From: Escherichia phage ph0021
Strand: one strand, 5' to 3'
Sequence record: OP557970.1
Length of the DNA stretch: 64,000 nucleotides
Below are positions 31,780 to 35,549 of this stretch, one piece after another; position 1 is the stretch's first letter; every line of letters begins with the position of its first letter. Below the pieces are notes generated by a model. It made no database searches. It was given only the letters and a program-made list of their open reading frames with translations, and was not told the DNA's origin. Position numbers and translations under genes: made by a program.

Positions 31780-32250
31780 CTAGCGATAAAAACCAAATTG
31801 ACGATTAGCTTCAATAATCTTTCTTTCTTCTTCGGACATTCTCCAGCGTAGTCCAACATCAAAATGGGCCCAGACCATCTTAACAAATGCATTTATGTCT
31901 TTAATATCTTCAATGATGAATGTTTTACTTTTAAAAGGCTGACTCGCTAATTTAACTTTATCATCTTCAAACAGGTCAAAAAGACCATATTCATGAGCTC
32001 TTTTATAGCCTTTAATAGTTAAAGCTTCAGAAGAAGAAAACGGTGAATCAGTATTCTGCAAAATATCTTCAGTATGCTTTATAATTAGAATAATATTTTC
32101 TGGATATTTTCTTTCTTTTATATCTTTAATTAAAAAATCCGGATTTTCTGCTAAAGGAATAATTAATGAGCATTTTTTATCAAGTGTATTTACTGATTTA
32201 CCTTCTTTAGACATAAATTCTATTGAATAATGTTTTGCTACTTCAATCAT
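31780..32250 (-). CDS. hypothetical protein (mrh region)
   Basis: 156-aa ORF in the modB-soc interval. Confidence 0.5.
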
Positions 32251-32407
32251 GTGATTTCCTTTTGCCTACTAATGGACCATCGGGAATTTTGTTTTCCTGG
32301 ATATATTTCTCATTTTCTTCCATCATTTTACTGCCAATTTTAAGAAGCAAATTCAGTGCTTCATTTGCTTTTGCTTTAGCCTCTTCCAATGTCATATCTT
32401 TGTTCAT
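32243..32407 (-). CDS. small hypothetical protein (54 aa)
   Basis: ATGA overlap with the upstream stop and 8-nt overlap with the downstream start; below the ORF-track cutoff. Confidence 0.35.
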
Positions 32408-32607
32408 GATTTATCACCATAGATGTCTCTCATCAATTTAAGCGCTGAGCGTTCTAATTTCTTTTCTTTCTCAGCACTAATCATTGATTTCATCCATTCT
32501 TCCGATTCGTTCTGCATTTCTTTATTTGCTTGTTCAACCCAACCATCATCAATGTACATTGAGTTTGGTCTACTAAACCATTCAAGTATTTTCTTCAGAA
32601 CTTTCAT
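32404..32607 (-). CDS. hypothetical protein
   Basis: 67-aa ORF. Confidence 0.4.
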
Positions 32608-33067
32608 TTGTTTTACCTAAAACGACAGTAGGAGCATCGTCAAATTCATGAATTTTTAGCAAATTTGGATGTAAACTATTCCATACAGAAGAAATAAAAT
32701 ATGATAAAGCGTCTTCACTCGCAATTATAAATTTATTTCCTTTATCTATTTTCCAACTATATACTGAATCGTATGAATAAAATGATAAAGGTTTATCATT
32801 ATATTGTTCTGCGCTAACATTAATGTATTCGGATTTAGTAAATGCTTCAATTGCTCTAAACGGAATATTTGGCACAGTTTCAATAATACCAATCTTTTTA
32901 AGTTTTATTTCAGCATCTTCTGGAACTGGCATTGAAACGAAATTTTCTACGAGATACATTGGGTCACAATAACCCTTATCAATCATTACAGCTACAGTAA
33001 TTGGAACATCTTTAGCAAATGACATACTATTACTGCTAATATACATTTCAAACAAAATTGCTTCCAT
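32582..33067 (-). CDS. hypothetical protein
   Basis: Track ORF trimmed to the internal Met (MEAILFEMY). Confidence 0.5.
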
Positions 33068-33075
33068 AATTTTCC

Positions 33076-33417
33076 TCAATCGCAAGATGTAGATGAACAA
33101 CTAGAATCGCAAGAACTTCCACATGAATCGCCTGCCCATACATGAACAGGAACATTAGTATCATATGAATCAGAACTAGACTGTGTATTCTGTGTGTTAG
33201 ATGATGTAGTAGGTGTTGACCAGCGCCAAGGATTTTTATAATATTCTTGGGCTTCTTCATAAGTCATAGTAACTGCTTCTACTGTTCCATCTCCCATATA
33301 AACATACTCAACTGCAGTTAAAGGAAGGTAGTCATTTGAAATAGGAACTACACCTTCCCCAGGAGTCGTAGAGAAAAAATCCGTAAAGAAACTTTTAAAC
33401 CAATTAAAGATAAACAT
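33076..33417 (-). CDS. hypothetical protein with a Ser/Thr-rich linker and cysteine-rich C-terminal tail
   Basis: C-terminus ...[47 protein letters not shown]. Confidence 0.5.
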
Positions 33418-33623
33418 TACAAAAAGCCTCTCTTGAATTCGACTTGCTTTTCACCATAATCATATCGAATCTCTGCATTAAATTCGACAGAACCATCTGC
33501 GTACATCATAAATGAATGCACAATAACTTCTGTAGACCATGGCTGTAATTCATATTTCTTCATTACATGTCGTGAAATGATAATATCTAAATCTTCATTC
33601 GGTTTAATCCAACGATTTAACAT
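33417..33623 (-). CDS. hypothetical protein
   Basis: 68-aa ORF directly downstream of an early promoter. Confidence 0.5.
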   Translation of the reverse strand: MLNRWIKPNEDLDIIISRHVMKKYELQPWSTEVIVHSFMMYADGSVEFNAEIRYDYGEKQVEFKRGFL

Positions 33624-33649
33624 AGTGCTCTCCTCTATAAGATAATTCT

Positions 33650-33679
33650 ATTATACCATACTCATTTTGATATGTAAAC
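33650..33679 (-). promoter_or_regulatory. T4-type early promoter
   Basis: GTTTAC, 18 bp spacer, TGG-TATAAT. Confidence 0.5.
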
Positions 33680-33689
33680 CATTTAAATG

Positions 33690-33712
33690 AAAAAGGACTC
33701 CCGAAGGAGTCC
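33690..33712 (-). terminator. rho-independent terminator after soc
   Basis: GGACTCC-CGAA-GGAGTCC stem-loop followed by TTTTT on the minus strand. Confidence 0.65.
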
Positions 33713-33718
33713 TTGAAT

Positions 33719-33962
33719 TTATTCACCAGTTACTTTCCACAAATCTTCATTTGCAGCAATCCATTCAGTACGTTGATTTTCTTCATATACTGTAGAATAT
33801 GCTGCTTTTTCTGAAGGGAACGTCTGGTAATGAGCACCAGAAATTTTGTGAACATCAGAATAAAGAGGGAAAGCTACAGAAATTTCTTTACCCTGAATTG
33901 TTACCACCATCAACTGCTTGGTCAAATGTTTTAATATTAACATAACCGCGAGTACTAGCCAT
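33719..33962 (-). CDS. soc: small outer capsid protein Soc, reading frame apparently interrupted
   Basis: ATG at 33962 gives MASTRGYVNIKTFDQAVDGGNNSG then a stop; a second frame from about 33900 gives ...GKEISVAFPLYSDVHKISGAHYQTFPSEKAAYSTVYEENQRTEWIAANEDLWKVTG, which matches the Soc C-terminus. Confidence 0.6.
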
Positions 33963-33978
33963 GTAATTCTCCTTTTAT

Positions 33979-34188
33979 TTAAATTACATGATTATTTATA
34001 ATAAATTCTCGCGGAACGTTAAAATACCCGATTTTAGTTAATATAACAACATCACCGTTAATAATTACCGGAGAATAATCTTCTGGAGCATTAAATTTCC
34101 AATGGGCTCTAATATTATATCCATCAGAACCAAATGCTCGAGTAGCCGGTCTCCCGGCTTTTTGCCACGCGTAGAAATCAAATTTCAT
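33979..34188 (-). CDS. hypothetical protein (soc-56 interval)
   Basis: 69-aa ORF; T4 has segF at this locus. Confidence 0.5.
   Translation of the reverse strand: MKFDFYAWQKAGRPATRAFGSDGYNIRAHWKFNAPEDYSPVIINGDVVILTKIGYFNVPREFIINNHVI
33993..34000 (-). promoter_or_regulatory. T4-type late promoter (TATAAATA) upstream of soc
   Basis: Exact TATAAATA on the minus strand about 30 nt upstream of the soc ATG. Confidence 0.55.
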
Positions 34189-34379
34189 TTTGAATGCTCT
34201 ATAATTAATTTTAAAGCTTCTTCACTGACAAAAATTTCGTCAGGACCTTCTATAACTTCAACCGTACGAAGTTGATTAGTTAAGAGCTCACATACGAGCT
34301 CCTTGTTATAATCTTTAAATAGTTGGTCAATACGTTTCTTATGGGCTTTCTTAAGCTGACGCTTATTTAAACGAGCCAT
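34185..34379 (-). CDS. hypothetical protein (soc-56 interval)
   Basis: 64-aa basic ORF with overlaps at both ends. Confidence 0.5.
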   Translation of the reverse strand: MARLNKRQLKKAHKKRIDQLFKDYNKELVCELLTNQLRTVEVIEGPDEIFVSEEALKLIIEHSK

Positions 34380-34897
34380 TAATAACCTCGGTCTTGACGG
34401 GCGAAATTTTCGGCATTTTTCAGATAATAAAGTTTAAAGATTTCTTCTGCTGTAAGACCAAGACCCTGGAACATATTCAGAACGAAATGAAGAATATCAA
34501 TCATTTCAAATTTAATTTCTAACTGGTCTTGTGGAGACAAATCAGTAATCAGAGTTTCACGACGTTCACCATGCTGCGACTTCCAAGGTTTCCATACAGC
34601 AGATGCGTCTTTTTCACCATTACTCATACCACCAAGAGAAGTCAGAAGTTCACGGAATTCATCATCAATATAATCTTTCTGATTGCGTAGCCAATCAACA
34701 ACTTCACCGGCAGTAGCCAAGTCATCAGGATGACGATTATATTCAGGTTTATCTTTAGCTAAACGAACCTGTAAAGATTTCTGCATGTCAAGCATTACCT
34801 GTAGCGGGTCTTTTTCATCACCGAGAATATCCCAATACTCATTTTGAGCTTTATCAGCGCCTTCGATCAGTTGACTACATTCGTTGAAATGTGGCAT
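34379..34897 (-). CDS. 56: dCTP pyrophosphatase gp56
   Basis: 172 aa; MPHFNECSQLIEGADKAQNEYWDILGDEKDPLQVMLDMQ... matches T4 gp56 (171 aa). Confidence 0.9.
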   Translation of the reverse strand: MPHFNECSQLIEGADKAQNEYWDILGDEKDPLQVMLDMQKSLQVRLAKDKPEYNRHPDDLATAGEVVDWLRNQKDYIDDEFRELLTSLGGMSNGEKDASAVWKPWKSQHGERRETLITDLSPQDQLEIKFEMIDILHFVLNMFQGLGLTAEEIFKLYYLKNAENFARQDRGY

Positions 34898-34898
34898 G

Positions 34899-35549
34899 TT
34901 ATTTTTCCTTTCTTATGAAGTTTTCTATCATATGTCTATAGCAGATATTAGGATAACCTGCCTTGACAGCTATTTTATTAAATTTTGTGCGCTTAGGTCT
35001 ATTATTATAAACCCATAATTCATAAAGCGCATCATAACTATTCCATATTTCTCCTCGCCTAGGATTTGGTAAACCATATCGAGGTGAATTTTTACCGCTA
35101 AATCTTCCTTTTCGGGCTTTACTCATATTAGCCTTGGCTTCATCGGATATAATTTTACCTTTATGAGCTAGACGCATTTTGGCTTTAGTTTCTTCTGGGG
35201 TCTTTTTGCCTTTAATCCATGACGGCTTGCCATATCTAGGATTATTTTCACCCGAGAAAAGAACAGAGTTTTGGATTTTAAGGGTTTCTATTAATCTACT
35301 TGTTAATTTAACACCTTTATTATATCGCATTAAATTTACAGCATAATGCAATCCTCTCACATCTGGATATATTTTAGTTAATAATCTATGAGCTATAAAA
35401 TGCTCACGCGCAGTTAACTCAACAAGATTGTTTTTGTCATCTGCTCCTCCTATACATCTAGGAATTATATGATGACGTTCTTTATATCCGCCAAGATGCC
35501 GGCATTTAGCTTTTGTAATTAAAGCCGAGTAAATTTTTTGGTAATTCAC
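34899..35549 (-). CDS. HNH-family homing endonuclease with NUMOD-like DNA-binding repeats
   Basis: HNH core ERHHIIPRCIGGADDKNNLVELTAREHFIAH; repeated NNPRYGKPS / KNSPRYGLPN motifs with GK..SEE.K.K.S.A.KG spacing; freestanding between 56 and 61. Confidence 0.75.
   Translation of the reverse strand: MNYQKIYSALITKAKCRHLGGYKERHHIIPRCIGGADDKNNLVELTAREHFIAHRLLTKIYPDVRGLHYAVNLMRYNKGVKLTSRLIETLKIQNSVLFSGENNPRYGKPSWIKGKKTPEETKAKMRLAHKGKIISDEAKANMSKARKGRFSGKNSPRYGLPNPRRGEIWNSYDALYELWVYNNRPKRTKFNKIAVKAGYPNICYRHMIENFIRKEK

Follow-up and report, generated by a model that had tools for sequence, protein, structure and literature searches.

The stretch of DNA analyzed here, 64,000 nucleotides from Escherichia phage ph0021 (OP557970.1) and called the window throughout, carries on its minus strand the T4-type early gene mrh.1. 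Our main finding is that the 113-residue Mrh.1 protein ends in a cysteine-aspartate tail that is retained, with hardly an exception, at the free C-terminus of a family covering at least eight genera of T4-like phages. Sequence comparison shows that this tail is a real feature, with selection acting on it at the protein level. The gene and its family were already known; what we add is the invariant C-terminal motif, a layout of three short modules, a protein in which the tail stands by itself, and a link to tails of the FmdB type. Mrh.1 is thereby turned from a "hypothetical protein" into a defined design, three short modules with an obligatory C-terminal Cys-Asp motif, and this design singles out C103, C112, D113, and the free C-terminus as targets for mutation.

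Mrh.1 is a member of a catalogued family

The open reading frame (ORF) is the catalogued T4 gene mrh.1, of family DUF7206 (Pfam) and PHROG 2031.

33076..33417, minus strand: mrh.1 coding sequence, ATG start, 113 amino acids plus TGA stop, member of Pfam DUF7206 and phrog_2031

The assignment follows from profile matches, from the name used in the RB32 record, and from identity to the T4 protein. PF23836 (DUF7206) matches residues 3-113 over profile positions 1-107 of 107, with 102 bits against a cut-off of 25.6 (E=3.3e-29), and phrog_2031, which is labeled "unknown function," matches with E=1e-32. Both hallmarks of DUF7206, the GDG hairpin and the terminal C-D, are present in the window protein when it is aligned with the family. 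In the RB32 record, the gene is called mrh.1, with mrh.2 upstream and mrh downstream. The window protein is 98.9% identical to T4 Mrh.1 (UniProt P20706), from which it differs by a single conservative change (V35A), and 100% identical to its counterpart in phage PsgM02F. It is acidic (isoelectric point ~4.05), and tblastn finds it in 501 phage records. The strand, which the earlier note on this DNA had not given, is minus in the ORF listing of the window.

T4 is the best-studied phage and still has many early proteins of unassigned function, Mrh.1 among them. Full-text literature searches on mrh.1, DUF7206, and Y01I returned no paper treating Mrh.1 and no functional work, and a T4 structural-genomics paper (PMC8076793) treats Mrh, not Mrh.1. 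When the earlier note stated that it could assign no function, it therefore spoke for the whole field, although the ORF itself has its place in the catalogues as mrh.1 and DUF7206. A 2026 preprint on the Mosigvirus protein Emp/Gp94 (Emp targets MreBCD) was considered as relevant and rejected: Gp94 adjoins motA and the text contains no mrh.

The C-terminal Cys-Asp motif is conserved across T4-like phages

Mrh.1 has only four cysteines (3.5% of its residues, 4/113), C99, C103, C107, and C112, separated by x3, x3, and x4. All lie in the last 15 residues, and both the length of the ORF and the C-terminus quoted in the earlier note match exactly. For comparison, Cys makes up 1.12% of the window ORFs of at least 100 residues, the chance of at least four Cys in a 14-residue C-terminal stretch is ~1.4e-5, and no other window ORF of at least 50 residues ends in CD. 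The tail motif can be written Y-D-S-G-S-S-C-D-S-x(3-6)-S-C-D (YDSGSSCDS...SCD).

33079..33138, minus strand: module 3, the C-terminal tail, residues 94-113; C103, C112, D104, D113, and the free C-terminus are conserved
33121-33123, minus strand: tail Cys codon C99
33109-33111, minus strand: tail Cys codon C103
33097-33099, minus strand: tail Cys codon C107
33082-33084, minus strand: tail Cys codon C112

Orthologs were taken from 21 further loci, comprising three Tequatroviruses (RB32, T4, and T2), three metagenomic T4-like contigs, and 15 phages (Dhaka-, Gapriver-, Mosig-, Moon-, Winkler-, Kanagawa-, and Marfavirus, and Yersinia phage P8). A profile built from 17 orthologs retrieved 116 clusters, ~111 of them full-length, from at least eight genera. 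Single-sequence methods reached less far. A word-indexed search and phmmer gave few matches, phmmer showing three distant full-length homologs (37-60% identity) with the ends of the protein kept; against 1.84 billion representatives, phmmer gave 10 matches, all T4-like except for one repetitive 1152-residue sequence that is clearly spurious. The earlier note had proposed conservation across T-even genomes as a check of the tail, and the outcome is clear-cut: 109 of the ~111 full-length family clusters end in ...CD and the other two in ...CN. No homolog carries a C-terminal extension beyond the tail. This points to a need for a free end, that is, to a C-terminal motif that would work only in that position.

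Conservation columns were derived from an alignment of 60 diverse sequences, including the window protein. Five columns are invariant (Y40, G42, G44, E47, and C112), and a further set is at least 90% conserved (K8, F11, P19, P25, E37, D43, V49, D97, S102, C103, D104, S105, and D113). The four cysteines are not equal in this respect: C103 and C112 are family-wide, whereas C99 and C107 occur in Tequatrovirus only, with one metagenomic protein having three tail Cys. The regular spacing reported by the earlier note is thus true of Tequatrovirus and fails for the family as a whole, where the two Cys that are kept lie at variable distances. The residues between these two also vary (S, G, P, V, or F), and SY/GY repeats are common in the tails outside Tequatrovirus.

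At the nucleotide level, the conserved residues are encoded by alternative codons, TGT and TGC for Cys, GAT and GAC for Asp, and TCN and AGY for Ser. The ratio of nonsynonymous to synonymous change (pN/pS) is 0.34 in the last 15 codons, with pS near saturation at 0.77. Selection on the tail therefore acts at the protein level. The remaining frames of mrh.1 are closed, or open in Tequatrovirus only; the +1 frame has 62 open codons there and at most 27-30 in Dhaka- and Gaprivervirus. Since the alternative frames are not kept open, the annotated frame is the coding one. An overlapping +1-frame ORF at 33048-33260 was rejected as a candidate, not being conserved beyond Tequatrovirus. The earlier note had considered that the tail might be absent from orthologs as an artifact of a translated frame; the opposite is seen.

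Mrh.1 consists of three short modules joined by hypervariable linkers

Mrh.1 is a mostly disordered protein in which three short conserved modules are separated by hypervariable linkers.

33373..33417, minus strand: module 1, N-terminal amphipathic helix, residues 1-15; consensus M-I-x-W-L-K-N-L-F, with K8 and F11 at least 90% conserved
33262..33318, minus strand: module 2, β-hairpin around a GDG turn, residues 34-52; the most conserved block, with Y40, G42, G44, and E47 invariant
33139..33216, minus strand: Ser/Thr-rich disordered linker, residues 68-93; predicted local distance difference test (pLDDT) below 50, length and composition hypervariable across the family

AlphaFold2 (AF2) was run twice with the 60-sequence alignment, with a T4-type and with a Dhakavirus-type query (mean pLDDT 57). 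The model, of low confidence overall, predicts a helix at residues 4-15, a pair of strands (34-40 and 46-52), and a second helix at 53-67; block means of pLDDT reach 75-86 in the region 31-60. Nothing beyond the N-terminal helix, the hairpin, and one or two helices took shape in the two runs. Residues 70-113 fall below a pLDDT of 50, leaving the tail disordered, and the Dhakavirus homolog gives the same picture.

Module 1 has the core pattern [FW]-[LI]-K-x-[LF]-F, which in T4 reads FNWFKSFF. Its mean maximum hydrophobic moment is 0.59, compared with 0.44 ± 0.12 in shuffled sequences, and in most genera the helix is only ~9 residues long (MIxWLKNLF), followed by K, T, P, or G. By Kyte-Doolittle hydropathy, Mrh.1 shows neither a signal peptide nor a transmembrane segment: the maximum 15-residue mean is 0.87, the value at the N-terminus is 0.85, and the N-terminal segment contains K8 and D13. 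The protein should therefore be cytoplasmic with its thiols reduced, this being, judged from hydropathy, its most likely location.

What lies between the modules is far less constrained. The distance from the GDG turn to the C-terminus ranges from 55 to 120 residues across the family, and in two homologs (P0115 and P0117) ~110 extra residues lie between the N-terminal helix and the hairpin. The Ser/Thr-rich linker that the earlier note singled out is present here as described, yet it is a trait of the T4 lineage; the linkers of other genera are rich in K, R, E, and Q and span 30-90 residues. One Tequatrovirus protein, from Escherichia phage 235Ecol030PP (P0003, 164 residues), carries an insert of ~50 residues in the linker between the post-hairpin helix and the tail, with the tail kept. 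The insert (…MEEIIRQPEKAGNVGAGALPLNSKKLKEHLDSRR…IDTAPIITATAVSSW) is nearly identical to the hairpin end and linker of Gapriver- and Dhakavirus homologs and is followed by a T4-type tail with four Cys. By its sequence, this Mrh.1 appears to be an intragenic recombinant between genera.

A related tail occurs outside Mrh.1

A profile of the last 42 residues gave four weak matches, the DUF7206 family itself being lost to composition filtering. Two of these (P0120 and P0121) come from Citrobacter phage Ci1 and related contigs; they have 47-58 residues and consist of a basic helix and ...YTPSYNSDSSYDSCDSSSPSCD. With 29.5 bits, P0121 scores above the DUF7206 cut-off, its match being confined to profile positions 53-107. 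The gene of the 58-residue Ci1 mini-protein lies directly after the dda helicase gene, not in the soc-mod locus, in a Straboviridae genome whose record leaves subfamily and genus unassigned; tblastn with this mini-protein found nothing, probably because of low-complexity masking. Being a helix and a tail with no hairpin, the Ci1 protein indicates that the tail can exist apart from the rest of Mrh.1.

In the other two matches, a tail of similar composition follows a Cys4 zinc ribbon. P0122, from a phage-like metagenomic contig (L045:1235-1450), has 71 residues, its zinc ribbon being followed by the Mrh.1-like tail SSYDSGSSSCDSGSSDSGGSCDSGGSF (SSYDSGSSSCDSGS...SCDSGGSF). P0123, from Caldicellulosiruptor, is a bona fide member of the FmdB family (TIGR02605, "CxxC_CxxC_SSSS," 49.7 bits against a cut-off of 31.3) and ends in SYDSGSSCSSGCCGGSCGF. 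The tail profile retrieves P0122-type and FmdB proteins only at E=2-8, and the reverse match to DUF7206 is subthreshold (E=0.21). The resemblance between the tails may be convergent.

Possible functions of the tail

The reading that we favor, and hold tentatively, is that the tail is a flexible thiolate/carboxylate arm for metal binding or thiol-disulfide exchange, docked via the helix and the hairpin. The two conserved Cys-Asp dyads and the terminal carboxylate would form the arm, which would chelate a metal ion (alone, as a dimer, or by sharing the metal site of a partner) or take part in thiol-disulfide exchange. Docking of Mrh.1, either to a partner or to the membrane on its inner side, would fall to the N-terminal helix and the hairpin, and the Tequatroviruses would have strengthened the arm with two more Cys. 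We read the tail in this way because each conserved Cys precedes an Asp, because the Tequatroviruses added Cys, and because the arms of NrdA offer a precedent, flexible C-terminal dithiol arms being an established device in ribonucleotide reductase R1. Moreover, Cys is a costly residue and uncommon in linear motifs of the cytoplasm where its thiol plays no part. The disorder of the tail in the AF2 models is as expected for a flexible ligand arm. Of the metal-binding or disulfide-forming tail proposed in the earlier note, what survives is a thiol-based role, still the most economical reading; the resemblance to known metal-binding proteins does not extend to a profile match, and the modeled tail is disordered.

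Several observations weigh against a thiolate/carboxylate arm. With only two conserved Cys in each chain, a classical tetrathiolate site would need Asp ligands, dimerization, or a partner. The last two Cys lie 4-10 residues apart across the family, and the Yersinia phage P8 homolog keeps the terminal SCD alone; both features are atypical for a defined metal site. In the profile search for metallothionein-like or zinc-ribbon motifs that the earlier note had suggested, no metallothionein or zinc-ribbon profile matched Mrh.1: DUF7206 was the sole Pfam match at E≤10, and NCBIfam gave none at that threshold. No meaningful relative was found in the PDB by sequence, by family profile, or with two tail peptides, and a Foldseek search of the PDB with the first AF2 model gave no match at E≤0.001 (best E=1.5). 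In a T4 time course (PMC9697503, supplement file 4), the Mrh.1 protein class is "NA" (undetected), with Mrh.2, Mrh, and Srh detected. Trypsin cuts Mrh.1 into peptides of 8, 53, 4, and 48 residues, which are unsuitable for mass spectrometry, so the non-detection is uninformative. Lastly, public phage genomes and metagenomes contain broken mrh.1 alleles (P0004, P0005, P0006, P0009, L029:701-, and Sa45lw), among which P0006 reads into the +1 frame, L029 stops after 28 residues, and Sa45lw is annotated from M41; these reflect either a dispensable gene or assembly errors.

The closest competitor dispenses with metal altogether, and we consider it nearly as likely as the thiolate/carboxylate arm while still doubtful in itself. 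The ...S-C-D-COOH end, together with YDSGS, would dock as a linear motif in a pocket that recognizes a free carboxylate (PDZ, TPR, or clamp-type) on a protein of the host or the phage. The Cys would then provide shape and hydrogen bonds, and Mrh.1, assembled from three linear motifs, would serve as a tether or a competitive inhibitor. The strict C-terminal position in ~110 clusters fits well, as do the disorder of the tail and the separation of motifs by hypervariable linkers, typical of linear-motif proteins, the existence of a single-Cys homolog in Yersinia phage P8, and the occurrence of the tail in a different N-terminal context in the Ci1 mini-protein. However, Cys is rare in the predicted proteins of the window (1.1%), linear motifs in the cytoplasm seldom retain it when its thiol has no use, the Asp after both Cys suggests ligand dyads, and what the Tequatroviruses gained was further Cys rather than other residues. 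A looser reading, which we regard as unlikely, makes the tail a low-complexity spacer or a sticky, condensate-forming segment rich in [S/G]-Y-[S/G] and Asp, with the function residing in the N-terminal helix and hairpin and the Cys incidental. Ser codons do switch freely, the residues between the Cys vary, SY/GY repeats are frequent outside Tequatrovirus, and the hairpin is the best-conserved and best-modeled part of the protein. Yet C112 is present in 60/60 sequences and D113, C103, and D104 in at least 90%, so that conservation is one of position and not of composition; the Ci1 protein has the tail but no hairpin, and T4 has no Tyr repeats.

The other explanations fare worse. A more specific mechanism, for which we see very little probability, has S-C-D...S-C-D-COOH acting as a portable thiolate-carboxylate plug that a MinD-like helix holds at the membrane and that inserts into, or strips, the metal site of a host zinc enzyme close to the membrane, with FtsH as the obvious candidate, like a cysteine switch. 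FtsH is the protease that degrades sigma-32, srh is a proposed sigma-32 decoy, and mrh is a sigma-32 modulator; were the plug real, mrh.1 would be tied functionally to its neighbors srh and mrh. Still less credible is a precursor of the ribosomally synthesized and post-translationally modified peptide (RiPP) kind, with a Cys/Ser/Thr core modified to azoline/azole, lanthionine, or thioether as in microcin B17-type peptides, lanthipeptides, or SCIFF. The composition does resemble such cores, FmdB-family tails are said, in the description of TIGR02605, to resemble heterocycle bacteriocin precursors, and one FmdB-family tail of similar flavor matches a class III lanthipeptide model below threshold (E=0.03). 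Set against this, the annotations within 3-10 kb of mrh.1, at ~20 loci from at least eight genera, include no cyclodehydratase/YcaO, LanB/C/M/KC, or radical-SAM maturase; the T4 genome is not known to encode any such enzyme apart from the NrdG activase; and Mrh.1, an early protein located inside the cell, lacks both a leader/core layout and an export system. Export, with the tail as a periplasmic disulfide loop and the N-terminal hydrophobic stretch as signal or anchor, is scarcely more than nominal among the candidates. The N-terminus is indeed aromatic and hydrophobic, and extracytoplasmic proteins often have Ser/Thr-rich linkers and disulfide loops at their ends, but the low hydropathy and internal charges of this N-terminus mark an amphipathic segment rather than a hydrophobic core, no cleavage-site pattern is seen, and in most genera the helix spans only ~9 residues before K, T, P, or G. 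As for a frame artifact or noncoding ORF, the comparative data refute it, and we give it virtually no weight. The lack of mass-spectrometric detection in T4-infected cells could be cited in its favor and is explained by the unsuitable tryptic peptides; against it stand a family that is conserved in at least eight genera with synonymous variation and matched by Pfam and PHROG models, a start coupled to the mrh.2 stop and preceded by a Shine-Dalgarno sequence, and alternative frames that are closed in other genera.

Should the tail turn out to act on a host enzyme as a metal or redox arm, it would be a new kind of host-takeover device and might illuminate the equally unexplained tails of the bacterial FmdB-family proteins. 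If the arm reading is false, Mrh.1 is an ordinary conserved phage protein.

The mrh.1 locus and its expression

In the window, mrh.1 is the second gene of an early operon, mrh.2-mrh.1-mrh, that begins downstream of soc.

33693..33714, minus strand: intrinsic terminator hairpin after soc, AAGGACTCCTTCGGGAGTCCTT followed by a T-run; 9-bp stem with 5 GC pairs
33650..33678, minus strand: near-consensus, T4 early-type extended -10 sigma-70 promoter (TTTACA, 17-nt spacer, TG, TATAAT)
33417..33623, minus strand: mrh.2, 68 amino acids, phrog_1873; its TAA stop overlaps the mrh.1 ATG by 1 nt (TAATG)
33073..33077, minus strand: Shine-Dalgarno sequence GAGGA of mrh, overlapping the mrh.1 stop; read as GAT TGA GGA AAA TT ATG
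32582..33067, minus strand: mrh, 161 amino acids, T4_MRH family (PF24070, E=5e-43; phrog_1234), third gene of the early unit

The terminator divides the late soc transcript from the early mrh.2-mrh.1 unit, and terminators are annotated at the equivalent place after soc in phages Marfa and Merlin. The predicted early promoter, with 11/12 matches plus the TG motif, follows directly and lies 27 nt before the mrh.2 start. The start of mrh.1 is preceded by a GAGAGG Shine-Dalgarno sequence. In agreement with this arrangement, the T4 time course mentioned above (PMC9697503, supplement file 4) assigns mrh.1 RNA to the class "early." Because the mrh.1 stop overlaps the Shine-Dalgarno sequence of mrh, the last mrh.1 codons are dually constrained in Tequatrovirus. 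The other genera have different downstream genes and junctions, and the C-D end is still kept.

In RB32, the order is 56 - soc - mrh.2 - mrh.1 - mrh - srh - modA.4/.3/.2 - modB - modA. The general order soc-(mrh.2)-mrh.1-(srh/mrh)-modA.x-modB is found in the window, in T4, T2, and RB32, in Dhaka-, Gapriver-, Moon-, Winkler-, and Marfavirus, and in metagenomic contigs. In the Kanagawavirus loci, the genes downstream follow the same order, and hoc or a lipase-like gene takes the place of soc upstream. The Mosigvirus locus fits the soc-to-mod order too, though mrh.1 is unannotated there. In Escherichia phage HX01 (Mosigvirus, NC_018855, L011:1501-1749), there is an intact DUF7206-type ORF of 82 residues ending in ...SSSGSCE, where the RefSeq annotation has no mrh.1 coding sequence and calls two tiny ORFs on the opposite strand instead.

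The ORF upstream, coupled to mrh.1 in translation, is less constant than mrh.1 itself. A PHROG scan identifies it as Mrh.2 (phrog_1873) in Tequatro-, Mosig-, and Dhakavirus and also in Yersinia phage P8, and the Gaprivervirus annotation calls it Mrh.2. Unrelated small ORFs stand in its place in Moon- and Kanagawavirus, where they fall into other PHROGs, and in Marfavirus, where no PHROG matches; Winklervirus and one metagenomic lineage lack it. Mrh.2 as an obligate partner of Mrh.1 was therefore rejected, the upstream ORF being of another PHROG, of none, or absent in four genera. Mrh.1 is more broadly conserved than Mrh.2 or Mrh and depends on neither.

The rest of the neighborhood has features of its own, beginning with soc.

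33719-33962, minus strand: soc, split by a +1 frameshift near 33903-33906

At the frameshift, T2 has GGTGGT-ACAATTCAG and the window has GGTGGTAACAATTCAG; the normal start gives MASTRGYVNIKTFDQAVDGGNNSG*, and the remaining Soc is in another frame. soc is dispensable, and the split is either a real pseudogene or a sequencing error in a PsgM02F-like genome. Between gene 56 and soc are two small ORFs (64 and 69 residues), arranged as in T2, where T4 has the SegF homing endonuclease, and a different homing endonuclease (216 residues) lies immediately upstream of gene 56 (the regions concerned are 33979-34379 and 34899-35549, minus strand). The locus is a mosaic of mobile endonuclease genes.

The 3-kb neighborhood (window 32000-35000) matches "Pseudomonas phage PsgM02F" (OR584013) at 100% identity and many Tequatroviruses at 92-96%. 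The host in the PsgM02F record is Pseudomonas coronafaciens from coffee leaves, which is surprising for a T4-like enterobacterial phage; by gene content and by 92-96% identity to coliphages, this PsgM02F-like window is a typical Tequatrovirus. One deposited T4-like genome names mrh.1 "capsid vertex protein" and mrh.2 "ADP-ribosylase." In many T4-like deposits, the small modA.2/.3/.4 ORFs are labeled [quoted passage not shown] which looks like an error spread through a name clash with bacterial modA.

Comparison with known systems

Mrh.1 is not a member of any of the groups that its tail brings to mind: metallothioneins, zinc ribbons/FmdB proteins, RiPP precursors, secreted disulfide proteins, or ribonucleotide reductase tails. 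With metallothioneins and with the Cys-rich C-termini of SlyD and MerA, it shares a flexible Cys/Asp segment with no hydrophobic core. In contrast to these, it has no C-x-C or C-x-x-C clusters and no His, and only two of its Cys are conserved family-wide.

The FmdB family (TIGR02605, PF09723), widespread in bacteria, is similar in that its members are small proteins with a low-complexity Ser/Gly/Asp/Cys tail at the C-terminus. However, FmdB proteins have two CxxC knuckles ~17 residues apart at the N-terminus, whereas Mrh.1 has no CxxC at all, and their tails do not end in the invariant C-D of the Mrh.1 family. Neither Mrh.1 nor its Dhakavirus homolog gives a TIGR02605 or PF09723 match in NCBIfam and Pfam. 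For FmdB zinc ribbons, too, the literature searches returned no functional work.

At the other end of the protein, the short amphipathic helix recalls the terminal membrane-targeting helices of MinD, FtsA, MreB, and SepF, with which it shares its core pattern. The end of E. coli MinD, read from the genome, is KKGFLKRLFGG, and its FLKRLF resembles the M-I-x-W-L-K-N-L-F of Mrh.1. The MinD helix is C-terminal and that of Mrh.1 N-terminal, and the latter could bind a protein groove instead of a membrane.

The tail was also compared with the C-terminal redox-shuttle arm of class Ia ribonucleotide reductase R1 (NrdA). No homology links the two: the Cys spacing is x2-x4 in NrdA and x4-x10 in Mrh.1, the NrdA arm ends in K-I/L rather than D, and Mrh.1 lacks the R1 catalytic domain. 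What NrdA has in common with Mrh.1 is a disordered acidic C-terminal arm with a pair of Cys in its last ~10 residues. Read directly, the NrdA tails are ...DDGCESGACKI in E. coli and ...ADDCAACKL in T4, beside which some Mrh.1 homologs have C-D-S-G-S-S-S-C-D. Judged from these tails, the likeness is an analogy of design only, and a generic one: a dithiol carried on a flexible acidic arm at the end of the chain.

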